Positions 2,845-57,125 of a DNA stretch of 64,000 nucleotides are shown here, in pieces. A program made the translations under genes and the position numbers. Under the pieces are notes generated by a model. The model ran no database searches. It had not been told where the DNA came from and saw nothing but the letters and a program-made list of their open reading frames with translations. The stretch is taken from contig JAXDGL010000008.1 in the NCBI GenBank assembly GCA_034665065.1, positions 319,412 to 383,411 of the forward strand, given 5' to 3'. The DNA comes from Thermoanaerobaculia bacterium. GTDB taxonomy: Bacteria; Acidobacteriota; Thermoanaerobaculia; Gp7-AA8. Position 1 is the first letter of the stretch; each line of letters begins with the position of its first letter.

Positions 2845-4065
2845 ATGCTCAGCTCGCCCACGCCGCTTCTGCGGCGCGTAGCCATCGAGAATTTCAAGAG
2901 CATCGCAAAGTGCCGCGTAGATCTCGCTCCGCTGACGATCCTCGTCGGGCGCAACGGTTCTGGTAAGAGTAACTTTCTCGACGCACTGAAATTTGTTGCC
3001 GACGCGCTTCAGACGTCACTCGATCACGCGATCCGAAGCCGAGGAGGTATCGACGATGTGCGCCGTCGAAGCACCGGCCATCCCCGAAACTTTGGGATAC
3101 GTCTGGAGCTTCTTCTTCCAAACCTTCATAGGGCGGACTTCACATTCGAGATTGCCTCTCGTCCCGGAGGATCGTTCGCCGTAAAGAACGAAGAGCTTAA
3201 TGTAGTTTCGCCGAGCGGCTCGAAAACGGCAAATTATCACCGCGAGGAAAGGAGGGTTTCTTCCGAGAGCCATACAACAATGCCTCCTGTGCTCGACGAC
3301 CGCCTCTTTCTCGTCAACGCCGCTGGCCTTCCGGAATTTAGGCCCGCATATGATGCCCTCGTTGCGATGGGTTTCTATAACCTTGATCCCGAAGCGATGC
3401 GGGAGCCGCAGGCACCCGACGCTGGAGAGTTGTTGCATCACGATGGAAGTAACATTGCCAGCGTAGTGGGACGTTTGTCGGCACATCCGTCGGACGTTTT
3501 AGCTCGGATCAGTGACTACCTCCGGCACATTGTTCCTGCCGTCGAAAGTCTAGAGCGAGCACCTCTTGGACCGCGCGAGACGTTGCAGTTTTTGCAGAAG
3601 GTAAAAGGCTCTAAGTACCCGTGGCGTTTCTATGCCTCCAGTATGTCGGACGGCACGCTTCGGGCTCTCGGCGCGCTTGTCGCGGTTACACAATTTGCGG
3701 AAGGCGCACAGACGGTGCGACTAGTTGGTATAGAGGAACCTGAAACCGCACTTCATCCTGCCGCCGCTGGAGCGCTTATGGATGCCTTAAGGGAGGCGAC
3801 GAAACACACTCAGGTGATTGTGACCACGCATAGTGCCGATCTGCTTGATCAAGTCGATATCGATCGTGACGGGCTGCTGGTTGTCGTGTCGACAGACGGC
3901 GTCACCAGAATCGCCCCGGCGGATGAAGCTAGTATCAACGTTGTTCGTGAGCATCTCTACTCAGTCGGTGAACTGCTGCGAGCGGATCAACTTGTCCCCG
4001 ATCCTACAAGTCTCGAAGAACAGGATCAGCTGGAGTTGTTCTCAACCGGCACCGCGGCCCAATGA
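2845..4065 (+). CDS. ABC/OLD-type AAA ATPase (AAA_21/AAA_15-like)
   Basis: Walker A VGRNGSGKSNFLDAL near the N-terminus. Walker B/D-loop region RLVGIEEPETALHP and TTHS near the C-terminus. Architecture matches ATPase subunits of OLD/PARIS/AbiL/Gabija-like systems. Confidence 0.8.
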   Translation: MLSSPTPLLRRVAIENFKSIAKCRVDLAPLTILVGRNGSGKSNFLDALKFVADALQTSLDHAIRSRGGIDDVRRRSTGHPRNFGIRLELLLPNLHRADFTFEIASRPGGSFAVKNEELNVVSPSGSKTANYHREERRVSSESHTTMPPVLDDRLFLVNAAGLPEFRPAYDALVAMGFYNLDPEAMREPQAPDAGELLHHDGSNIASVVGRLSAHPSDVLARISDYLRHIVPAVESLERAPLGPRETLQFLQKVKGSKYPWRFYASSMSDGTLRALGALVAVTQFAEGAQTVRLVGIEEPETALHPAAAGALMDALREATKHTQVIVTTHSADLLDQVDIDRDGLLVVVSTDGVTRIAPADEASINVVREHLYSVGELLRADQLVPDPTSLEEQDQLELFSTGTAAQ

Positions 4066-8406: not shown

Positions 8407-8606
8407 AAAATGTTGAATGTTGAATGTTGAATGTTGAATGTTGAGTGTTGATCGTGCGCCGCCATCCTCCGTTCGTTCAACACTCAATACTCATCATTTA
8501 CAATTTAATGAATCCAACATTTAATATCCATCATTTAACATACAATATTAACATCCGCCATTTAACACTCAACATTTAACATTCAACATTCAACATTCAA
8601 ATGTTC
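8407..8606. repeat. AT-rich imperfect palindrome built from TTGAATG heptamer arrays
   Basis: 5x tandem TTGAATG (8409-8445) and its reverse complement CATTCAA x3 (8580-8606) flank a ~120-bp AT-rich core carrying repeated CATTTAACA-like motifs. Sharply lower GC than surrounding DNA. Confidence 0.8.
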
Positions 8607-8749
8607 GCTGAACCAGAATCATCGTTCTGCGCGAAGATTCTCAGCATCCAAGGTACAGCCGGCCTGGAAGACGCTTCGGCGCCGGCAACGGAACGACGAA
8701 CCCCCGCTCCCCACACCCATCCCGTATCATGTCGCGCCGCGGAGGTCGA

Positions 8750-10372
8750 ATGTCCAGACGTCTCCTCTGTTTCTCGTTCTTACTTCTTCTCGTTTCGCTT
8801 CCGGCTCTTGCCGACTCGCCGGGCGTGTACGCAATCACGGGTGGCACGATCCACCCGGCCAGCGGGCCGGAGATTGCGAACGGCGCGGTGATCATTCGCG
8901 ACGGTCTGATCGAATCGGTGGGCTACGCGGTGGCCATCCCGCTCGACGCCACGGTCATCGACGTGAAAGGGGGCCACATCTACCCCGGCCTCATCGATGC
9001 GATGACGTCGCTCGGTTTTCCAAGTGCGAGCGCGCCACGACGACGCGGTGGTGGGGGAGCAGCGGCGCGCGCGCCGGCAGCCGATCCGTTGCCCGAAACG
9101 GGGCCGTCGTTTCTCGCCTTTCGCGAGGCGAAGCTCTCCGACGATGACGTCGACGCCAAGCGCGCCACCGGCGTGCTGACGATCGTCACCGCACCTTCGT
9201 TCGGCATTTTTAACGGCCAGGCCGTCGCGCTGAACCTCGGCGGCGGGACGATGGAATCGCGCGTCGTTCGCAATCCCGCATGGCAGCAGATCTCGTTCAA
9301 TCCGCGGCCCGCGTGGACGTATCCCGATTCGCTGATGGGCGTGATCTCGTACATCAAACAGACGCTGCTCGACGCGCAGCAGCACGCGGTTGCGAAGTCG
9401 ATTTACGACAAGAATCCGGCCGGCTACAAACGTCCTGACGAGAGTCCATCGCTCGACGCCCTCGGCTCCGTGCTGCGCCGCGACGTGCCGCTCCTCTTCG
9501 TCGCCGACAGCGAGTTGATGATCCGTCGCGCCGAAGCAATCGCCAAAGAGTTCAACGTGCGGCTGATCATCGCCGGCGCGCGGCAGGGCTACAAGATCGC
9601 CGATGAGTTGAAATCGATCGGCGCGCCCGTGCTGGTCTCGACGAAATGGCCCGTCGCGCCGGCGGAGAAGGAGGATCGCGACGAGCAACCGCTGCGCGTC
9701 ATCCGCGACCGTCAGCTCGCGCCGACCACTCCCGCGGTGCTGGCAAAGAGCGACGTGCTCTTCGCGCTCGTCAGCGGTGCCGGGAAGACCGGCGACTTCA
9801 TTCCCGGGATACGCAAAGCGATCGAGAACGGGTTGTCTGCGGACGACGCGTTGCGCGCCACGACGATCAACGCAGCGAAGATCGCCGGCATCGACCGGCA
9901 GCTCGGATCGCTCGATCGCGGCAAGATCGCGAACATCGTCATCACCGACAAGCCGATCTTCGACAAGGAAGCGAAGGTGAAACGGATCTTCATCGACGGC
10001 CGCGAATCGAAAGTAGCTGTCGAGGATGAGAAAAAGAAACCGAGTGGCGGGACGGCGACGGCGGGAGCATCGGCGTCGAGCATCGACGGCAGTTGGAGCT
10101 TCATCGTCAAGACCACCGCCGGCGACGCGAACATCTCCGCGACTCTGCGCGTCGAGAATGGCCAGATCAGCGGCACGTTCTCCGGCGACCGCGGCTCCGG
10201 CAGCATCGGCAACGGAACGTTCGACGGCACGACGGTCGAGTTTTCGATCGCCGGCCGCGGCAAGGAAGAGGCGGGCGACTGGCTGTTCCACGGCACGCTG
10301 CACGGCGCGAACATGGAGGGAACTGTAGCGACGACGCTCGGCACGTTCCCGTTCACGGGGAGTAAGAAATGA
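8750..10372 (+). CDS. secreted amidohydrolase-family protein (paralog 1, metal-binding HxH replaced)
   Basis: Signal peptide [21 protein letters not shown]. Amidohydrolase fold motifs ([17 protein letters not shown]; C-terminal [13 protein letters not shown]). The canonical HxH after the GLID motif is absent. Confidence 0.8.
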
Positions 10373-10416
10373 AAATCATAAAAGACGTTGTCGGTTTTCG
10401 GTTGTCAGTTGTCTGC

Positions 10417-10566
10417 CATTCCGAGCCCGGCGGCGCCCCGGAGGGGCAAAGTACGGCGAGGAATCCCCTGCCGTTCGCCTCTACCGCCGCCCGCCCTTCG
10501 TTTCAAGAAGGGGATTCCTCGCCGCGCTCCACCCCTCCGGGGTTTCGCCGGCTCGGAATGACAGCG
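10417..10566. repeat. MITE-like palindromic element, family A copy 1
   Basis: Termini CATTCCGAGCCCGGCG … CGCCGGCTCGGAATGACAGCG. Inner inverted pair GAGGAATCCCCT/AGGGGATTCCTC. Related copies at 13401-13460 and 28873-29082. Confidence 0.8.
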
Positions 10567-11940
10567 ATGCCGCTGCTCCTCGCAGTTGCAGCGTTTGCGC
10601 AGACAACTCCTCCAACCAACGACATCCTCATCCGCGACGCGACGATCCTCACGATTACGCATGGCAAGATCGAGCATGGATCGATCCTCGTGCATGGCGG
10701 GAAGATCGCCGCGGTCGGCGGGAATGATCGCGTGACGGCGCCGGCGAATGCGACGGTCATCGACGCTGCCGGCAAGTTCGTGATGCCCGGCATCATCGAC
10801 ACGCACAGCCACTCCGCGGTCGAAGGAAGCGTCAACGAAGTCTCGCTGCCGAACACCGGGATGGTGCGCATCGGCGACGTTCTCACCAACGAAGACATCG
10901 ACGTCTATCGCCAGCTCGCCGGCGGGACGACGACGGCGCTCGTCCTGCACGGCTCGGCGAATCCGATCGGCGGCCAGTCGCAGATCGTGAAGTGGAAGTG
11001 GGGACATCCCATCTCCGAATGGCCGGTCTCCGATGCCCCTCGCACGATCAAGTTCGCCCTCGGCGAGAATCCGAAGTCGTCGAACTTCCGGCCGCCGCCG
11101 GGGATCCCTGCGCAATACCCGCAGACGCGCATGGGCGTTGAGGAAGTCATCCGCCAGTCGTTCACCGATGCGAAGGATTATCTGGCGCGATGGGACGACT
11201 TCGACGCGCGCAAGAAGCGTGGCGAGAATCCCATTCCGCCGCGGCGCGATCTCCTGATGGAGACCATGGCCGACATCCTACGCGGCAAGATTGACGTCCA
11301 CTCGCACTGCTACCGCGCCGACGAGATCATGATGCTGCTCAATGTCTCCGACGAGCAGGGCTTCAAGATTCGCGAGCTGCAGCATGTGCTGGAAGGCTAC
11401 AAAGTGGCGAAGGAGATCGCCGCGCACGGAGTCGGGGGCGGCACGTTCATCGACTGGTGGGGATTCAAGGCCGAGGCCTATGACGCGATTCCGTACAACG
11501 TGGCGCTGATGGATCGCGCCGGCGTGCTGACGTCCGTGAACTCAGACTCAGGCGAGCTGGCGCGGCATCTCAATCAGGACGCCGCGAAAGCGATGAAGTA
11601 CGGTGGACTGTCGGAAGAAGAAGCGCTGAAGCTCTGCACACTCAACGGCGCGAAACAGCTCCGGCTCGATCATCGAATCGGATCGGTCGACGTGGGCAAG
11701 GACGCCGATCTCGTGATCTGGAACGGCCATCCGCTGTCGGCGTACTCGCGCGTCGAGACGACGCTCGTCGATGGCGAGATCGTGTTTGACCGCCAGCGCG
11801 ATCTGGCCATGCGCGCGCAATTAGCCGCGGAAAAGAAGGATCGTTTGAAGAAAGAAGCGGACGACGAAGCAAAGAACAAGAAGCCATCGAAGCCCGGCAA
11901 GAGCGACGAAGAGACGAAGCCGGAGGCAACCAATGATTAA
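10558..11940 (+). CDS. secreted amidohydrolase (paralog 2, intact HxH)
   Basis: Signal peptide [29 protein letters not shown] metal-binding motif. C-terminal [15 protein letters not shown]. The ORF-track N-terminal extension (10369-10557) is translated MITE sequence. Confidence 0.85.
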
Positions 11941-13282
11941 CCTGGGACCGCGGGCGTCCCGCCCGCATTCGACGCCTCCAGTGCTGAGATTGATAGTCGC
12001 GCTTCTCCTCGCCACATCGGCTTACGCGCAATCGGTCATCCCGAACAGTCCCGGCAAGAAACCGACCTTCGCCATCCGCAACGCCACGATCGTTCCGGTG
12101 ACTTCGCCGCCGATCGCGAACGGCACGATCGTCTTCGCCAACGGCGTCATCACGGCCGTCGGCGCCAACGTCACCGTTCCCGCGAACGCGACCGTCATCG
12201 ACGGAACGGGCCTCTTCGTCTATCCCGGTCTCATCGACAGCGGCTCGCATGTCGGACTCGAAGAGATCAGCGCCGTTCCCGGCACCGTCGACACCGCGGA
12301 GTTGGGCGATATCAATCCGAATGCGCGCGCCGAGGTTGCGGTGAATCCGCATAGCAACGTGATACCGGTGACGCGCGTGAACGGAATCACAACTGTCGTC
12401 AGCGAGCCTGAGGGAGGCATCATCTCCGGCTCGTCGGCGATGATCCAACTCGCCGGATGGACGCCGCAGGAGATGACGCTCAAGGCGCCGCTGGCGATGC
12501 ACATCCACTTCCCGCGCTTGCGGACCAATGCGTTCGACGAAGTTCCGCAGGATGAAGAGGCCACGAAAGAAGCGGCGAAGAATTACACGAAACAGATCGA
12601 CAAGCTGCGCGACACGTTGCGCGACGCGCAGGCATACGGGCGGGCATCCGCGGCGCGCACGAATCATCCAGAGATCAAGCGCGTCGATCGCGATTTGATG
12701 CTCGAAGCGCTCGTTCCGGTCGTCGAAGGACGCGAACCGGTGGTGATGCACGCGAACCTGGAGCGCGATATCCGTGCGGCGATCAAGTTTGCCGATGAAT
12801 TCAAATTGAAAGTGATTCTCGCTGACGCCGAAGATGTGGCGAAGGTCATTCCCGAACTGAAGTCGCACAAGATCCCGGTGATTCTCGGGCCGATCCTCTC
12901 GATGCCGCCGCGCGAAGACGATCCGTACGATCTCGTCTACGGCAACGCCAGGACGCTGTTCGACGCGGGCATTCCGTTCGCGATTCAGTCGCTCGATGCG
13001 CACAACGCGCGCAATCTACCGTATCAGGCCGCTGCGTGCGCGGCGTTCGGGTTGCCGAAAGAGGAAGCGTTGCGCGCGGTGACGATCGCGCCCGCGCAGA
13101 TTTTCGGGATGGCCGATCGAATCGGATCGCTGGAGGCGGGGAAGCTGGCGAACATCATCGTCACGGACGGCGATCCGCTGGAGATCGTTACGCACGTGAA
13201 GCGGCTGTTCATCGGCGGGGAGGAGATCTCGCTGGAGACGAACCAAACGTTGCTCTACGAGAAATTCAAGGCGAGGCCGTGA
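11933..13282 (+). CDS. secreted amidohydrolase-family protein (paralog 3, HxH degenerate)
   Basis: Overlaps paralog 2 by 8 bp. [15 protein letters not shown] (SH instead of HxH). C-terminal [16 protein letters not shown]. Confidence 0.8.
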
Positions 13283-13298
13283 AGCCTCTCGGCGGTCA

Positions 13299-13386
13299 CC
13301 AGTGATCAGTGATCAGTGATCGGTGGTCAGAAAGTCAGGACGCTGGATAGCGATTCCTGATCTGGTCACTGATCACTGATCACTTG
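13299..13386. terminator. hairpin of inverted AGTGATC heptamer arrays
   Basis: AGTGATCAGTGATCAGTGATCGG … CTGGTCACTGATCACTGATCACT, immediately after the amidohydrolase 3 stop. Confidence 0.55.
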
Positions 13387-13400
13387 ATTGTCGCTTCGTG

Positions 13401-13460
13401 GGCGGAGATTCCTCGCCACCCGCCGCTCCGCCCGCTCGGAATGACAGCGAGAATGACAGC
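13401..13460. repeat. family A MITE half-copy
   Basis: GGAGATTCCTCGCC…CGCTCGGAATGACAGCGAGAATGACAGCG matches the right half of the family A element. Confidence 0.6.
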
Positions 13461-13497
13461 GCAAAATTCGGCGCGCTGCGTGTGAGAGATCGTGTCG

Positions 13498-13632
13498 TCA
13501 GCGATAGATCATCGCCGCTGTCGCCGAGATGATGAGCGACGCGGTCCAGAGGATCGTGAATACACGCCACGATTGCCGGCCGCTGCGTAGATCGAACGAT
13601 GTTTCGCTAACGAACTGCTTGATCTGGGTCAT
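13498..13632 (-). CDS. 44-aa hydrophobic peptide (hypothetical)
   Basis: Not in the ORF track (<60 aa). MTQIKQFVSETSFDLRSGRQSWRVFTILWTASLIISATAAMIYR. A GGAGAA RBS lies 6 nt upstream, directly downstream of the 13672-14007 gene on the same strand. Confidence 0.3.
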   Translation of the reverse strand: MTQIKQFVSETSFDLRSGRQSWRVFTILWTASLIISATAAMIYR

Positions 13633-13671
13633 CTGACGTTCTCCGGGCTCGCGGTTTTGCACATCTCATGC

Positions 13672-14007
13672 TCAGTTGTTGACGGTGTTGAGTGGATTGA
13701 CCGGAGCGGTCTGCTCTGGCTCCGAGGTTTGCGCCTGTTGGATGGGAACCGTGCGAGTGCCGAACGCGTCGATCGGCCACACATCGAGCGGCAGCGTGCG
13801 TCCGTTGGCGGCGAGGTAGACCGTCTCGCTCGTGAGCAATTCGATCGAGCCATTCGCAGGGATCGCGAAGCGCTCGCCGGCGTAGGTGAACATCGCGCCG
13901 GGCGTTCCCACGAACTTGTACGAGACGGTTCCTTTGTGGCAGACCGGGGCGGCGACTGGCGCGTGGTGGAGGAGGGCGGCGAGGGTGATTGCGTGCAGGA
14001 TGTTCAT
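13672..14007 (-). CDS. small secreted hypothetical protein
   Basis: Signal peptide MNILHAITLAALLHHAPVAAPV. ~111 aa after the internal Met. The longer ORF-track version starts at 14037. Confidence 0.5.
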   Translation of the reverse strand: MNILHAITLAALLHHAPVAAPVCHKGTVSYKFVGTPGAMFTYAGERFAIPANGSIELLTSETVYLAANGRTLPLDVWPIDAFGTRTVPIQQAQTSEPEQTAPVNPLNTVNN

Positions 14008-14169
14008 GCCCTGGACATACTCCAAGGGCGGTACCATGCAAGAATCTCAGTAGAATCAACGACTTAGTAAATCGTGCGCGATTTGAACGTCGCGAAATCA
14101 GACAGAGTGTCCTGATATCGTACGGTGAGAGATTCGCCTGATCGCGTGTATAGTCCGCCCAGTTCTTTC

Positions 14170-14335
14170 CCAATTTCTCTGAGTCAGTGAACGGGAAGCC
14201 GGTGTGATGCCGGCGCGGCCCCCGCCACTGTGACCGGCGACAACTCGCTCCACGATAGCCACTGCATCTACCGATGCGGGAAGGCGGCGCGACGAGGATG
14301 ACCCGGAAGCCAGGAGACCGGCTGGCTCGGAACCC
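14170..14335 (+). ncRNA. cobalamin (AdoCbl) riboswitch
   Basis: GGGAAGCCGGTGTGATGCCGGCGCGGCCCCCGCCACTGTGACCGG … GGGAAGGCGG … B12 box GAAGCCAGGAGACCGGC, directly upstream of the btuB-like receptor. Confidence 0.8.
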
Positions 14336-14371
14336 ACTTTTGATTCTCTTCTTCGGAGGGAAGGAGTCGTC

Positions 14372-16204
14372 ATGAAGCGTGTTCTCGCTGCGTCTCTGCT
14401 TTTTGCTGTTTCCTCGTTCGCTCAATCCACCCCACAACCCGTAACCATCAACGACCAGATCGTCGTCACTGCCTCGTCGTTACCGGAGACCTTGCAGGTC
14501 ACTCCTGCCGCTGTCAAGGTCATCACGCGTGCCGACATCGCCGCGCGCGCCGCGCGCGATGTCGCCGACGTTCTTCGCGAAGTTCCCGGCCTCGTGCTCG
14601 CGCGCAGCGGCTCGCCCGGCAAAGCGACCTCGCTCTTCACGCGCGGCGCGGCGTCGACGCAGACGCTCGTCCTCTGGAACGGGATCGCGTTGAACAATCC
14701 CTATTTTTCCGGCTACGACTGGGGACGTTTTTCGACCGCCGGCGTCGAACAGATCGAAGTCGTACGCGGACCCTACTCCGCGCTGTACGGTTCAGAAGCG
14801 ATGGCGGGAGTGATCAACGTATTGACCGCGCCGCGCACGAGCGCCGTTCATGGCGACTTCGAGAGCGGTAGCCATGGCTTGCGCAATGCCGCGCTCAACG
14901 CGACGTACGCCGCGGAAACGATCCAGGCCGCCGGCAGCTACGAGCATCGCGCCGATGATGGTTTCAACGCCAATGACGATTTCCGCCAGAACAGCGCCGG
15001 CGCGAACGCGAAATGGATTCCGTCCGACTCCTTTTCCATCGGCGCTTCCGGCCGCCACACTTCCTACGACCTCGGCATCCCCTTCAACACAAATGCCGCA
15101 GGCACCGCACTCGTGCCGAGCCTCGATCGCCGTCAGAGCGGGACGGAGACGCAGATCGCCATTCCGGTTAGTCTGACGCTCGGCCGCTTCATCAGCGATC
15201 TGACGCTCTCCGACAATCATCGCCGCGATGATTTCTCCGATCCTGCCGATCCGTTCACGACATCGACGTCGACCGATGCGAAGACGCGCCGCGCACGCTT
15301 GACGACGCGGTTTGTTACATCGGTAGGTACGATCGTCGCCGGCGGCGAGTACGAGCGCGACCTCGTCAGCGACGTCACCAACTACGGTCCGAATTTTCTC
15401 GCCAAGCGGCGCACCGATCACTCCCTCTTCATCGAAGACCGCTATTCGCATCCCATCAGCCAGACCACGCACTTCGAGCTCAGTGCCGGCGTCCGGCGCG
15501 ACCGCTTCGATACGTTCGGTGGACAGACGTCACCGCGCGTCGCCGCGGCCATCGTTCGAGGAACGACGAAATGGCGCGCCGCCTATGGCACCGGCTTCCG
15601 CGCTCCCTCCCTCGGCGAGTTGTACTACCCGTTCTTCGGTAACGCCGCGCTGAAAGCGGAGTCCAATCGAAGCTATGAGATCGGCTACGACGCGCCGATG
15701 GGACGCGACGGACTCTTCTCGCTGACATACTTCAACAGCCGTTACCGCAATCTCATCACCTTCGATCCCGTCACGTTCATCTCGCAGAACATCGGACGCG
15801 TGCGCGCCGACGGCGTCGAGGTCGGGATCACCAATCAGGTGAGCGCGAACGTCTACACCGCCTTCAGCTACACGTACCTGCATCGCGACGAAGATGAGAA
15901 GACCGGCCTGCGCCTGCTCCGCCGCCCGAAGCACTCCGGATCACTGGCGACCGGCTATCGCAACGGCGCGATCGACACGAACATCGCCATCCTCCGCACC
16001 GGCGAGCGCGACGACTCGCAAGCCGTTCTTCCATTCGGCCGCGTAACCAACAAGTCCTACACGACGATCGACGTCAACGTGCAATACCACATGGCGCACG
16101 TCTCCCCATTCGTAAAGATCGAGAACCTGCGCAACACGGCGTACCAGGAAGTCGTCGGCTACGCATCGCCGGGGCGAAGAGTGATCATCGGCGTGAAGTT
16201 CTAA
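14372..16204 (+). CDS. btuB: TonB-dependent outer-membrane cobalamin receptor
   Basis: Signal peptide, TonB-box/plug region (DQIVVTASS…VVRGPYSALYGSEAMAGVINVLT), C-terminal beta-barrel ending in F. Preceded by the B12 riboswitch. Confidence 0.85.
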   Translation: MKRVLAASLLFAVSSFAQSTPQPVTINDQIVVTASSLPETLQVTPAAVKVITRADIAARAARDVADVLREVPGLVLARSGSPGKATSLFTRGAASTQTLVLWNGIALNNPYFSGYDWGRFSTAGVEQIEVVRGPYSALYGSEAMAGVINVLTAPRTSAVHGDFESGSHGLRNAALNATYAAETIQAAGSYEHRADDGFNANDDFRQNSAGANAKWIPSDSFSIGASGRHTSYDLGIPFNTNAAGTALVPSLDRRQSGTETQIAIPVSLTLGRFISDLTLSDNHRRDDFSDPADPFTTSTSTDAKTRRARLTTRFVTSVGTIVAGGEYERDLVSDVTNYGPNFLAKRRTDHSLFIEDRYSHPISQTTHFELSAGVRRDRFDTFGGQTSPRVAAAIVRGTTKWRAAYGTGFRAPSLGELYYPFFGNAALKAESNRSYEIGYDAPMGRDGLFSLTYFNSRYRNLITFDPVTFISQNIGRVRADGVEVGITNQVSANVYTAFSYTYLHRDEDEKTGLRLLRRPKHSGSLATGYRNGAIDTNIAILRTGERDDSQAVLPFGRVTNKSYTTIDVNVQYHMAHVSPFVKIENLRNTAYQEVVGYASPGRRVIIGVKF

Positions 16205-25556: not shown

Positions 25557-25748
25557 CCTGTCATCCTGAGCCGCCGATGTCCCGGCAGGGGCTGAGGACG
25601 GTCGAAGGACCCCTTCTTCGTGCCATGATTCTTTCCGCCGCCGCCCCTTCAACCAATTAGGGGGTCCTTCGACCGTCCTTCGCCGCCGGGCACGTACGGC
25701 GCGAGAGCAAAGAGTTGAGCGGGCGGCTTCGGCGGCTCAGGATGACAG
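25557..25748. repeat. MITE-like palindromic element, family B copy 1
   Basis: Termini CTGTCATCCTGAGC … GCTCAGGATGACAG. Inner arms GGTCGAAGGACCCC / GGGGGTCCTTCGACC. Second copy at 33621-33804. Confidence 0.8.
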
Positions 25749-28828: not shown

Positions 28829-28872
28829 ACGTGAATCGTGAGACGCGAGCAACGCTGACTCCTCGCGCGTTT

Positions 28873-29082
28873 GTCATTCCGAAACGGCGAAACCGCGGGG
28901 GCGGACAGGGCGGTGGGAGCGGTGGAGCACGGAGAGGAATCCCCTGACGCTGGCCATGGCTTCGCTTCGTAGGCGGGGGATTTCTCATCGTGCTCCGCCG
29001 CTCACACCCGCCCTCCCACCCCCGCGGTTCCGCCGATTCGAAATGACAGCCGTGTTTGATCGGCCCTTTCGAAATGACAGGC
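28873..29082. repeat. MITE-like palindromic element, family A copy 3
   Basis: GTCATTCCGAAACGGCGAAACCGCGGGGG … CCCCCGCGGTTCCGCCGATTCGAAATGACAGC (+ second TTTCGAAATGACAGG tail). Inner GAGGAATCCCCT / GGGGGATTTCTC. Confidence 0.8.
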
Positions 29083-33620: not shown

Positions 33621-33804
33621 CTGTCATCCTGAGTCGCCGAAGGACACGAAGTGCCGGAGGACGATCGAAGGACCCCCTGCTTCGCCGCGACGGTCTTGTT
33701 GCGTCGCGTTTAGAGCAATTGGGGGGTCCTTCGACCGACCTTCGCCGCGATGCCTGCCGGTGCATGAGCAGAGTGGAGGCGCGGCTCGGCTGCTCAGGAT
33801 GACA
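33621..33804. repeat. MITE-like palindromic element, family B copy 2
   Basis: CTGTCATCCTGAGTCGCCG…GATCGAAGGACCCCC…GGGGGGTCCTTCGACC…GCTCAGGATGACAG. Collinear with the copy at 25557-25748. Confidence 0.8.
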
Positions 33805-33869
33805 GTGTCGAATGGCCGCGCTCTTGGTGGAACACCTCGCCTCTCCCTCCCTGTTCTAAACTCCGACTC

Positions 33870-42718: not shown

Positions 42719-42795
42719 GCTCCCGTAGCTCAATCTGGACAGAGCGGCGGTCTACTAAACCGACGGTGTGGGTCCGAGTCCCACCGGGAGCGCCA
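42719..42795 (+). tRNA. tRNA-like gene with atypical anticodon (parses as ACU)
   Basis: Cloverleaf: acceptor GCTCCCG/CGGGAGC, D-arm GCTC-AATCTGGACA-GAGC, anticodon arm GCGGT-CTACTAA-ACCGA (G27·A43 mismatch), T-arm GTGGG-TCCGAGT-CCCAC, discriminator G, CCA. The short variable loop is inconsistent with Ser. Confidence 0.55.
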
Positions 42796-57027: not shown

Positions 57028-57125
57028 GGAGGCGAATGGGGTCTGGTGGCTCCCGCGGTCTTCAAAACCGTTGTTTCGGCGCGGAAGCGTCGAAGGGTCG
57101 GTTCGATTCCGACGCGCCTCCGCCA
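57028..57125 (+). tRNA. selC: tRNA-Sec (selenocysteine, anticodon UCA)
   Basis: 98 nt. Acceptor GGAGGCG(A)/GCGCCTCC, 6-bp D-stem with 4-nt loop (GGGGTC-TGGT-GGCTCC), anticodon loop CTTCAAA (UCA), long variable arm, T-arm GTCGG-TTCGATT-CCGAC, discriminator G, CCA. Confidence 0.8.

Follow-up and report, generated by a model that had tools for sequence, protein, structure and literature searches.

Two ATG codons in the same frame could open the second amidohydrolase gene of the locus studied here. One, at position 10369, lies at the very end of the preceding gene, and the other, at 10558, lies inside the terminus of a palindromic repeat. The original prediction was that the repeat donates the start codon. 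Which of the two is the start, and what becomes of the repeat between them, was examined in the window (the whole 64-kb stretch of Thermoanaerobaculia DNA that was analyzed) and by comparison with related loci. We conclude that the true start of gene 2 is most likely 10369 and not 10558. Judged from sequence, the repeat would most likely be translated as disposable extra length of a signal peptide.

Gene order and the start of gene 2

The features of the junction, all on the + strand, are as follows.

8729–10372, +, gene 1, a putative exported amidohydrolase (from the ORF list and translation); its TGA stop, 10370–10372, overlaps the gene 2 start
10357–10362, +, Shine-Dalgarno (SD)-like GGGGAG, 6 nt 5' of ATG 10369
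10369–10371, +, most likely start codon of gene 2, conserved and coupled (ATGA overlap with the gene 1 stop), from the comparison of loci
10369–11940, +, gene 2, amidohydrolase of 523 aa, open straight through the repeat
10384–10412, +, left-arm half copy of a palindromic repeat from a second family (GTTGTCGG type), which would be translated in the gene 2 frame
10413–10564, +, A-family palindromic repeat (MITE/REPIN-like), 152 nt, in frame; recognized by inverted repeats, family copies, hairpin and orthologous copies
10413–10427, +, left terminal inverted repeat of the pair, CTGCCATTCCGAGCC
10550–10564, +, right terminal inverted repeat of the pair, GGCTCGGAATGACAG, read as (R)L-G-M-T
10558–10560, +, element-borne in-frame ATG inside the right terminus, base-paired in the predicted hairpin
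10567–10599, +, putative signal-peptide hydrophobic core and A-F-A motif (from the translation and from the aligned h-region and AxA-Q/E motif of orthologues)
11933–13282, +, gene 3, amidohydrolase; its start overlaps the gene 2 end, and its leader holds a short in-frame GC-rich palindrome

The synteny of genes 1 and 2 is kept in all Thermoanaerobaculia loci, and in L081 and L082 the neighboring gene carries the Pfam domains Amidohydro_1 and Amidohydro_3. Homologues of gene 2 (75–91% identity) carry PF01979 and PF07969. The gene 2 ORF of the window is full length and free of frameshifts, with 85–93% identity to its orthologues; the closest locus among GTDB representatives shows 93% protein identity. 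It had been claimed that the element fills the whole intergenic space behind gene 1. No such space exists: TGA 10370–10372 overlaps ATG 10369, the element begins 41 nt later, and 10384–10412 belongs to a different repeat family: L006, L008 and L014 have an element at this site whose left arm it matches.

As ATG 10369 overlaps the gene 1 TGA and follows a GGGGAG motif, translation of gene 2 would be coupled to that of gene 1. The same GGGAG-N6-8-ATGA context was found in L015, L006, L018, L081, L082 and L065, and in every analyzable locus, with or without an insertion, an ATG stands at −1 relative to the gene 1 stop. Aligned by inspection, the gene 2 leader corresponds to the MKR-h-AFA/(Q/E)(D/N) pattern of the orthologues (the slash marks the cleavage site). 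Its own predicted cleavage site precedes QT and was placed, likewise by inspection, between 10599 and 10600.

The A-family element and its other copies

The existence of the repeat family and its boundaries were borne out by terminal inverted repeats, further copies and a hairpin. The terminal inverted repeats of the element at 10413–10564 are 15 nt long and 93% complementary, and the inner arms (10427–10469 and 10509–10551) are 43 nt long and 81% complementary. The hairpin has a predicted energy of about −100 kcal/mol (−100.2), and folding of the 241-nt region gave −121.9 kcal/mol (z = −6.4). ATG 10558 was also correctly recognized as part of the element and in frame with the amidohydrolase, and it is missing in orthologues that lack the element. 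However, this ATG and the 18 nt upstream of it are paired in the predicted hairpin, with a mean P(unpaired) of 0.09 over 10538–10570. The sequence before it, GCCGGCTCGGA, is fully paired and has no GGAG-type motif at 5–10 nt. A scan of 8500–13700 for promoters of the sigma-70 type found none, and terminator-like sites in the same interval occurred at chance level. Searching Rfam returned no match at the gathering threshold, and the hits on the element at E ≤ 10 were generic hairpin/miRNA families far below that threshold. The built-in translation start proposed for the family consists of an ATG that is present but has neither an SD-like sequence nor a sigma-70-like promoter.

The window holds four full A copies, including 10413–10564, and one fragment; the others are as follows.

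13399–13459, +, right-half fragment of A with GAATGACAGCGA tandemly duplicated, intergenic
25558–25748, unstranded, full A copy, intergenic
28871–29049, unstranded, full A copy, intergenic, between convergent ORFs
33621–33805, unstranded, full A copy, intergenic, between divergent ORFs

The sequence GAATGACAG occurs three times in the window against 0.49 expected, and the 16-mer element end, with up to three mismatches, nine times against 1.31 expected; these ends are the paired ends of full copies, the end of the half copy at 13447 and the tandem duplicate at 13451–13459. The reported recurrence of the terminal motif is confirmed for copy ends including 13447 and 13451–13459, but the stretches at 29040–29049 and 29071–29081 read GAAATGACAG, a one-base variant. 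Whether copies sit at gene starts has a divided answer. In the window, no copy apart from 10413–10564 does so, all the others being intergenic, and the ORFs that open at their terminal ATGs reach at most 82 codons, none coinciding with a gene-sized ORF. In related genomes, by contrast, all 14 copies found in leaders have their ATG in frame. They represent about nine independent events and lie just before the hydrophobic core of what are, by sequence, exported proteins.

A nhmmer profile recovers A copies with E values of 1e-31 to 1e-39, and exact 26-base matches were found on more than 120 metagenome contigs among the matches listed. The copies are 83–191 nt long, contain no transposase gene, and are mostly intergenic, often adjoining gene ends. 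All full copies have the same termini, reading CTGTCAT(T/C)C(C/T)GAGC; the GTAG or CGTC tag of a REP head is absent. A long hairpin is formed, with two related motifs, ATTCCGAGCC and ATTCCTCGCC, in each arm. In a small sample examined by inspection (10413, 25558, 28871, 33621, L024, L178 and L188), no flanking direct repeat indicative of a target-site duplication was seen. A full-text literature search with the A terminal sequences returned unrelated primers only, and a search for palindromic repeats of Thermoanaerobaculia found nothing relevant.

Some copies lie within genes. In-frame copies were found in the genes for PolA and a molybdopterin oxidoreductase, and UvrA probably has one as well, so read-through of the A family seems to be tolerated elsewhere. 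Two copies adjoin native starts with the ATG in frame, at an ABC_tran_2 gene in L188 (MTD-M...) and an MCP gene in L178 (MTAR-M...). As cases in which the terminal ATG alone could serve as the start, both are ambiguous, each having a native-looking ATG 3–4 codons downstream. Where long ORFs open at the terminal ATG (L006, L020, L120, L190 and others), they run antisense or out of frame and have no Pfam hits. Among the copies checked, no clear case was found in which the terminal ATG is the sole possible start of a real gene.

Leaders of genes 2 and 3 across loci

The gene 2 set comprises 61 analyzable loci, namely the window and related Thermoanaerobaculia loci, all from metagenome assemblies. 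Because many of them share ancestry, they amount to about 10 or more independent events in gene 2, to which those of gene 3 are added. The ATGA overlap and an SD-like motif are present in 61 of 61 gene 2 leaders. Without an insertion, the leader consists of MKR, a hydrophobic core and AFA; 28 leaders are of this plain kind, with lengths of 63–93 nt, an example being L018, and one such leader reads MKRFLVFAFAFATASAFA/DTV. In these orthologues the start corresponds to ATG 10369 and not to 10558. The ORF extension to 10369, described as a translation of the repeat, is no artefact of ORF finding, since every insertion-free orthologue uses this ATG and it is present in all 61 leaders.

Leaders longer than 110 nt make up 30 of the 61 and contain repeats of unrelated types, which form 10 or more clusters by sequence. 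All 61 gene 2 leaders (63–867 nt) have a length divisible by 3 and are free of stops. The gene 2/gene 3 junction provides an independent replicate, at which 68 of 68 leaders are in frame, 19 of them longer than 110 nt. Such retention of the frame across insertions indicates purifying selection. Orthologous A copies occupy the gene 2 site in L002, L009, L081, L007 and L005, which with the window makes six loci; the alignment gaps between the ATGA start and the terminal ATG (9, 15, 36, 39, 3, 9 and 33 nt) are all divisible by 3. Two apparent out-of-frame exceptions proved to be of another kind. In L065, a 1-nt indel lies in the gene 1 tail and the ATGA and frame of gene 2 are intact, while L037 has a tandem triplication of the SD and ATGA junction and no repeat insertion. 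A closed frame upstream had been considered for P0005 and P0042, both called from the terminal ATG; in each, the reading frame from the ATGA start proved to be open and in phase. Gene 1 differs in having intergenic DNA upstream, and in many loci repeats sit 5' of its start codon; a clear insertion between its start codon and hydrophobic core was seen only in L033.

The insertion-bearing leaders also bear on the suitability of internal starts. In 9 of 49, no internal ATG, GTG or TTG would give a signal peptide of 14–45 aa, and 30 of 49 have no internal ATG at all. Lysine or arginine occurs in residues 2–5 of 77 of 77 plain leaders, versus 0 of 14 A-copy leaders if these began at the terminal ATG. 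With a start at the terminal ATG, L030 and L041 (gene 3) and L034 and L082 (gene 2) would have only 5–11 residues before the cleavage motif. In L030 and L041, the hydrophobic core is itself derived from the repeat. The n-region is longest in L004, where it would reach about 270 residues.

Probable read-through of the element and alternative explanations

We consider it probable that the element is an in-frame insertion, similar to the Rickettsia palindromic elements (RPEs), in the n-region of a cleavable signal peptide and that gene 2 starts at 10369. Translation would begin at this ATG, after GGGGAG. The A repeat (152 nt) and the half copy of the second family would have inserted directly behind the opening codons of gene 2, in the stretch between the positive N terminus and the hydrophobic core of a Sec-type signal peptide. 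Read through in frame, the repeat would lengthen the n-region of the pre-protein by about 60 residues, and its last codons, F-R-R-L-G-M-T, would set arginines beside the hydrophobic core. After export, the whole leader would be removed at AFA/Q, so that the insertion would cost the mature enzyme nothing. Because overlapping genes leave no intergenic DNA, insertions would accumulate at this site as well as between genes 2 and 3, and only in-frame, stop-free insertions would survive. Since the frame is kept and some leaders have no internal start, we infer that the element is translated. Some observations speak against read-through. With about 66 residues, the n-region would be unusually long, a stem of ~60 bp would have to be melted by the ribosomes, and some automatic annotations pick the terminal ATG (P0005 and P0042–P0047). 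In addition, the bias toward the L-x-M-T frame, seen in 14 of 14 leader copies, is also predicted by a model in which the terminal ATG is the start or a back-up start. The other stop-free frame, A-R-N-D, is not intrinsically closed, being open and used by internal insertions elsewhere (L144 and L160).

It could be argued that the element is effectively 5' untranslated, that initiation of gene 2 takes place at 10558, the terminal ATG, or at ATG 10567, and that the frame to 10369 is incidental. The ATG is indeed borne by the element, in frame, and directly followed by a hydrophobic stretch; it is in frame in all 14 leader copies, some gene callers choose it, and in L188 (ABC_tran_2) and L178 (MCP) a copy adjoins a native start and has its ATG in frame. 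However, every leader copy has a conserved in-frame ATG upstream of it, and donation of the start would leave unexplained why 61 and 68 leaders stay in frame and stop-free from ATGA despite unrelated repeats and many indels. The terminal ATG is sequestered in a stem of −100 kcal/mol without an SD-like sequence, its product would lack the K/R n-region of the plain leaders (77 of 77), and L030, L041, L034 and L082 would be left with too few signal-peptide residues and without most of the hydrophobic core. Moreover, nine leaders with other repeat types have no internal start. We regard this explanation as very unlikely. A variant, in which 10369 is the normal start and ribosomes melt the hairpin so that the terminal ATG is exposed as a secondary or fail-safe start, also appears unlikely. 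It would account for the fact that leader copies use the L-x-M-T frame without exception (14 of 14, from about nine independent events), where about one half is expected because the A-R-N-D frame is open and used in internal insertions, and the ATG is kept in six of six orthologous copies. However, compatibility of the peptide explains the bias equally well, R-R-L-G-M-T placing arginines and hydrophobic residues beside the core and A-R-N-D an acidic residue. The shorter product would have no positive n-region, and the ATG is lost in the gene 2 copy of L041 (LLLGTIAT).

A different proposal is that the host uses the hairpin as a signal between genes 1 and 2, to stabilize or process the mRNA, to slow translation, or to bind a protein as REP/BIME do. 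This is compatible with read-through, which would then be a side condition, and in our judgment it is rather unlikely. The conservation of the arms was unexpected. Across the six orthologous copies they are 90% identical, compared with 70% for adjacent third codon positions and 65% for the loop, and a stem is predicted in all six. Arm divergence is nearly flat over the codon positions (7%, 9% and 13%), which points to constraint at the nucleotide level and rules out selection on the peptide as the cause. Yet compensatory changes affect only 6 of 54 pairs, and many breaks are one-sided. In the close relatives L015 and L018, this position is taken by an entirely different repeat or is free of one, so no particular structure is required. 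Uniform arms could also result from ectopic gene conversion among the many copies in the genome, and no Rfam family matches. That the insertion turned gene 2 into a pseudogene, or that it is an assembly artefact, is extremely improbable. A repeat-derived 5' stretch of 190 nt often signals disruption, but the ORF is full length without a frameshift and 85–93% identical to its orthologues, five independent assemblies have the same element in the same position, and the preserved frame shows purifying selection.

Comparison with known repeat systems

The closest parallel to read-through of the A element is offered by the RPEs, which, as Ogata et al. (2000) are cited in PMC10969869, are palindromic elements of about 100–150 bp with many copies that occur in frame in protein-coding genes and are read through. 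Shared with them are the in-frame palindromic insert in genes and the existence of orthologues without the insert. The A family differs in its unrelated sequence, in its host (Thermoanaerobaculia, Acidobacteriota) and in that most copies are intergenic. Its insert also falls outside the mature protein, in what would be a cleavable signal peptide, and insertion is recurrent at one site across many orthologues. In Yersinia pestis YPO1552, an enterobacterial RU-2 (ERIC-like) repeat forms part of the predicted signal peptide, and the signal peptides of relatives are unrelated to it (Delihas 2007, PMC2759123). There, too, the N terminus of an exported protein carries an in-frame fusion to a small mobile palindromic repeat. 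However, that case is a single locus without comparative evidence for selection on the frame, whereas the present one involves more than 40 insertion-bearing leaders of two genes in an overlapping-gene context and, in L030 and L041, extends to the hydrophobic core.

According to Morelle et al. (2003), as cited in PMC3184786, the Neisseria REP2 and Borrelia IR repeats carry a promoter, a ribosome-binding site (RBS) and an ATG. The A family resembles them in having an initiation codon within the repeat that is placed before ORFs, but its ATG is buried in a stem, without an RBS-like sequence or sigma-70-like promoter, and every leader has an in-frame start upstream. In architecture, the A family is like the REP/REPIN elements mobilized by RAYT and MITEs such as Correia, being non-coding, 80–190 nt long and composed of two inverted arms that form a long hairpin. 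Unlike the REP superfamilies with GTAG or CGTC tags mentioned in PMC3733652, it ends in CTGTCAT...ATGACAG. Terminal inverted repeats, small size and many copies would fit a MITE, but a target-site duplication was not visible at the copies inspected.

Implications for gene annotation and genome evolution

Gene calls in these repeat-rich uncultured Acidobacteriota are inconsistent, some opening at the ATG of a repeat and others at the true coupled start. Such cases are settled by the rule that emerged from the comparison of loci, namely that the start overlaps the preceding stop as ATGA and the frame is never broken. The n-region of a cleavable signal peptide appears, from the leaders compared, to tolerate between 20 and about 270 inserted residues if the frame is kept. 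This would extend the RPE phenomenon of Rickettsia to another phylum and to a specific region of the protein. It would also suggest that selfish palindromic repeats accumulate, and are sometimes co-opted, where packed operons leave no non-coding DNA.

More speculatively, signal-peptide n-regions encoded where genes overlap in Thermoanaerobaculia may be recurrent, filtered landing pads for several palindromic repeat families. The A end, R-R-L-x-M-T, might then be a pre-adapted signal-peptide sequence, its ATG perhaps a back-up start, and the hairpin a maintained module that, for example, tunes the coupling of genes 1 and 2. We put this forward only tentatively, its last part being based on the 90% identity of the arms against 70% at synonymous sites. 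In some genes (L030 and L041), the A end supplies the hydrophobic core.

The A element and its family

The A element is a palindromic repeat recognized by its inverted repeats, its hairpin fold and its family copies; further copies in the window were located with its terminal 16-mer and nhmmer.

10413-10564, + strand: A element, palindromic, 152 nt
13399-13459, + strand: right-half A fragment
25558-25748, strand not given: full A copy with paired ends
28871-29049, strand not given: full A copy with paired ends
33621-33805, strand not given: full A copy with paired ends

Complementarity is 93% between the terminal inverted repeats (CTGCCATTCCGAGCC and GGCTCGGAATGACAG) and 81% between the inner arms (10427-10469 and 10509-10551). 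Folded alone, the element reaches −100.2 kcal/mol, and the surrounding 241-nt region −121.9 kcal/mol (z = −6.4 against shuffles). With three mismatches or fewer allowed, the window contains 9 occurrences of the terminal 16-mer, where 1.3 would be expected, and an nhmmer profile found every A copy of the window (E = 1e-31 to 1e-39). Exact hits to a 26-base right-arm pattern were present in more than 120 metagenome contigs among the matches listed. No Rfam family matched the A element, and a literature text search for its terminal sequence returned no paper with relevant context. A third palindromic repeat (CAGTGATCAGTGATCAG... / ...CTGATCACTGATCACT) lies downstream of gene 3, within 13283-13460, and is followed by the right-half A copy, whose end, GAATGACAGCGA, is duplicated in tandem (13439-13459).

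Probable read-through of the element from an overlapping start codon

The original prediction was that an intergenic MITE donates the start codon, ATG 10558, of gene 2 (amidohydrolase, 10369-11940). The element and its family are real, and it can be read directly from the sequence that ATG 10558 belongs to the right terminus of the element and is in frame with the amidohydrolase. However, there is no intergenic space for the element to fill: the TGA of gene 1 (8729-10372) at 10370-10372 overlaps ATG 10369 in an ATGA arrangement, with a GGGGAG motif 6 nt upstream of that ATG. The frame that opens at 10369 meets no stop codon as it crosses a half copy of another repeat (10384-10412), the entire A element and the hydrophobic core, and continues into the mature enzyme. 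This half copy, GACGTTGTCGGTTTTCGGTTGTCAGTTGT, corresponds to a left arm from a second family of palindromes (GTTGTCGG type, with peptides GVGSRESGVG...TPDTRHPTP), which occupies the same leader site in L001, L003, L006, L008, L010-L014, L064 and L065 (L numbers denote related genomic or metagenome loci). A 10-nt perfect complement to this arm is found at 10599-10608, past the hydrophobic core.

The protein homologues of gene 2 (75-91% identity; Thermoanaerobaculia/Acidobacteriota; Pfam Amidohydro_1 and Amidohydro_3) are of two kinds, one with a plain, ordinary signal peptide (e.g., MKRLLVFAIALVAASAFA/EN) and one in which the hydrophobic core is separated from the first residues by repeat-like peptides belonging to several unrelated types. 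We fetched 80 genomic loci and analyzed the gene 1/gene 2 junction at the DNA level; 61 leaders, from the window and related Thermoanaerobaculia loci, were analyzable. All 61, including 28 plain ones of 63-93 nt, start with an ATG overlapping the gene 1 stop, and all 61 are stop-free and divisible by three in length. The extension of the open reading frame to 10369, which had been taken for a translation of the MITE, is thus no artefact of ORF finding. Thirty of the 61 leaders exceed 110 nt, and by sequence their inserts form at least 10 clusters. The longest, 867 nt in L004 (3188-4054), encodes 289 residues derived from nested and tandem repeats and is still in frame and stop-free ahead of the hydrophobic core. 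When the six loci with an orthologous A copy are aligned, the gaps that fall between the overlapping ATG and the terminal ATG (the ATG in the right terminus) measure 9, 15, 36, 39, 3, 9 and 33 nt, each divisible by three.

Two apparent exceptions were resolved on inspection. The one-base indel of L065 sits in the gene 1 tail and leaves the gene 2 ATGA and frame intact, and in L037 the SD and ATGA junction is triplicated in tandem (3750-3940; units of about 90 nt), with the third copy giving the gene 2 start (MTNALR..., compare MRNALR... in L047). For the metagenome proteins P0005 and P0042, called from the terminal ATG, the same frame is likewise open all the way from the ATGA start; their short calls are the choice of the gene caller. 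In the close relative L015 (91% amino acid identity), the "empty" leader holds ATTGTCATCACAGCG (3975-3990), which looks as if the A element's outermost ends (TGTCAT and CACAGCG) had been joined and may be the footprint of an in-frame excision or deletion.

The same pattern is replicated at gene 3, an amidohydrolase gene whose start likewise overlaps the stop of gene 2. All 68 gene 3 leaders are in frame, 19 of them longer than 110 nt with repeats, and in-frame repeats accumulate at this junction just as in gene 2. A-type copies are present in L024 (MVRRTF-CHPEP...SSRLRMT-AFLALALAALQLSA/QS), L038, L041 and L030. The window's own gene 3 leader (11933-12040) carries a short GC-rich palindrome, GGGACCGCGGGCGTCCC, not present in plain orthologues (MKTKLF...). 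The conserved mature N-terminus SVIPN of gene 3 (window positions ~12033-12044 and many loci) is encoded by GTCATCCCGAAC, whose likeness to the A-family left terminus GTCAT(C/T)C(C/T)GA is probably a coincidence. Gene 1, in contrast, has intergenic DNA upstream, and in many loci repeats sit 5′ of its start codon; short, uniform signal peptides are the rule, and a clear insert within the leader was seen only in L033. The N-terminus of gene 1 (8729-8800) has a short duplication, shared with the close relatives L002, L005, L019 and L081, because of which two in-frame ATGs precede the hydrophobic core.

Is the terminal ATG a start codon?

Several observations argue against initiation at ATG 10558. 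In the predicted stem, every base of this ATG and of the preceding 18 nt is paired, with a mean P(unpaired) of 0.09 across 10538-10570; the ATG has no SD-like motif in front of it, and no sigma-70-like promoter was found in the region around the element. Residues 2-5 include K/R in all 77 plain leaders of genes 2 and 3, but would do so in none of the 14 leader copies if these were initiated at the terminal ATG. In L030 and L041 (gene 3) and L034 and L082 (gene 2), the hydrophobic core is encoded by the A-element right arm (...VLSCFVAALLSMT), and such a start would leave only 5-11 residues before the AQ motif. In the two gene 3 cases, the cores (VLSCFVAALLSMT, SCFVALLLSMT) come from translation of an A-type repeat's right arm, repeat DNA that apparently has been co-opted as signal-peptide core. 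Among 49 insertion-bearing leaders, 30 lack an internal ATG and 9 lack any internal ATG, GTG or TTG able to yield a signal peptide of 14-45 residues; with no usable internal start, the sequence implies that the repeats inserted there would have to be translated. ATG 10558 is therefore most likely not the start codon of gene 2.

It might nevertheless be argued that the terminal ATG acts as a back-up start, which it could conceivably do, since the right terminus is read as L-x-M-T, with the ATG in frame, in all 14 leader copies (about nine independent events in genes 2 and 3). The bias is real, because the terminus's own TGA closes just one of the alternative frames, and the remaining one, A-R-N-D, is open and used in internal insertions (L144, L160). 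We attribute it mainly to peptide compatibility, as R-R-L-G-M-T sets arginines and hydrophobic residues beside the core and A-R-N-D an acidic one. In the wider metagenome sample, the A family often lies directly against gene starts, but L188 (ABC_tran_2, with a native-looking ATG 2 nt past the A terminus, MTD-M...) and L178 (an MCP, MTAR-M...) are ambiguous as start donation. Of the proposed repeat family with a built-in start, it holds that the element carries the ATG and that this ATG is in frame and recurrent.

We consider it probable, from sequence comparison, that the element was inserted in frame in a translationally coupled gene, within the cleavable n-region of its signal peptide, and is read through. 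A survivorship filter would be the simplest reading: repeats would land widely, and where genes are packed into an operon and overlap, the n-region would be the sole tolerated landing site, provided that the frame is kept. Throughout an entire bacterial class such insertions recur at junctions of overlapping genes, and the arms of the orthologous A copies are conserved.

Conservation of the arms and comparison with known repeats

In an alignment of 10413-10564 with five orthologous copies, the arms of the six A copies have a mean identity of 90%, compared with 70% for the third positions of codons in the adjoining coding region and 65% in the A-element loop. Arm divergence over codon positions is nearly flat (7%, 9% and 13%), and together with the high identity this indicates that the arms are constrained or homogenized at the nucleotide level, possibly through selection on the hairpin, through a binding site, or through ectopic conversion between copies in the genome. 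Only 6 of 54 pairs show compensatory change.

The 140 A termini of the metagenome sample are mostly intergenic. Copies that keep the reading frame open were found inside PolA (DNA polymerase I; L125) and a molybdopterin oxidoreductase (L150); UvrA in L095 is a probable third case, in which the upstream in-frame translation looks non-genic. In L129 and L135, an A terminus lies N-terminal to a small membrane protein with an in-frame start upstream (DUF4149 match weak and sub-threshold). In having copies in frame within real genes, the A family is like the Rickettsia palindromic elements, for which in-frame intragenic repeat behavior has been described (PMC10969869), and the present case belongs among such RPE-like repeats, an already known kind. 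Start donation would instead resemble the Neisseria REP2 repeat, in which a promoter and an RBS accompany the ATG (PMC3184786); the A family shares only the ATG.

The window also contains a cobalamin riboswitch (113 bits; 14168-14340) upstream of an open reading frame at 14372-16204, a tRNA-Sec (57028-57121) and another tRNA (42719-42792).
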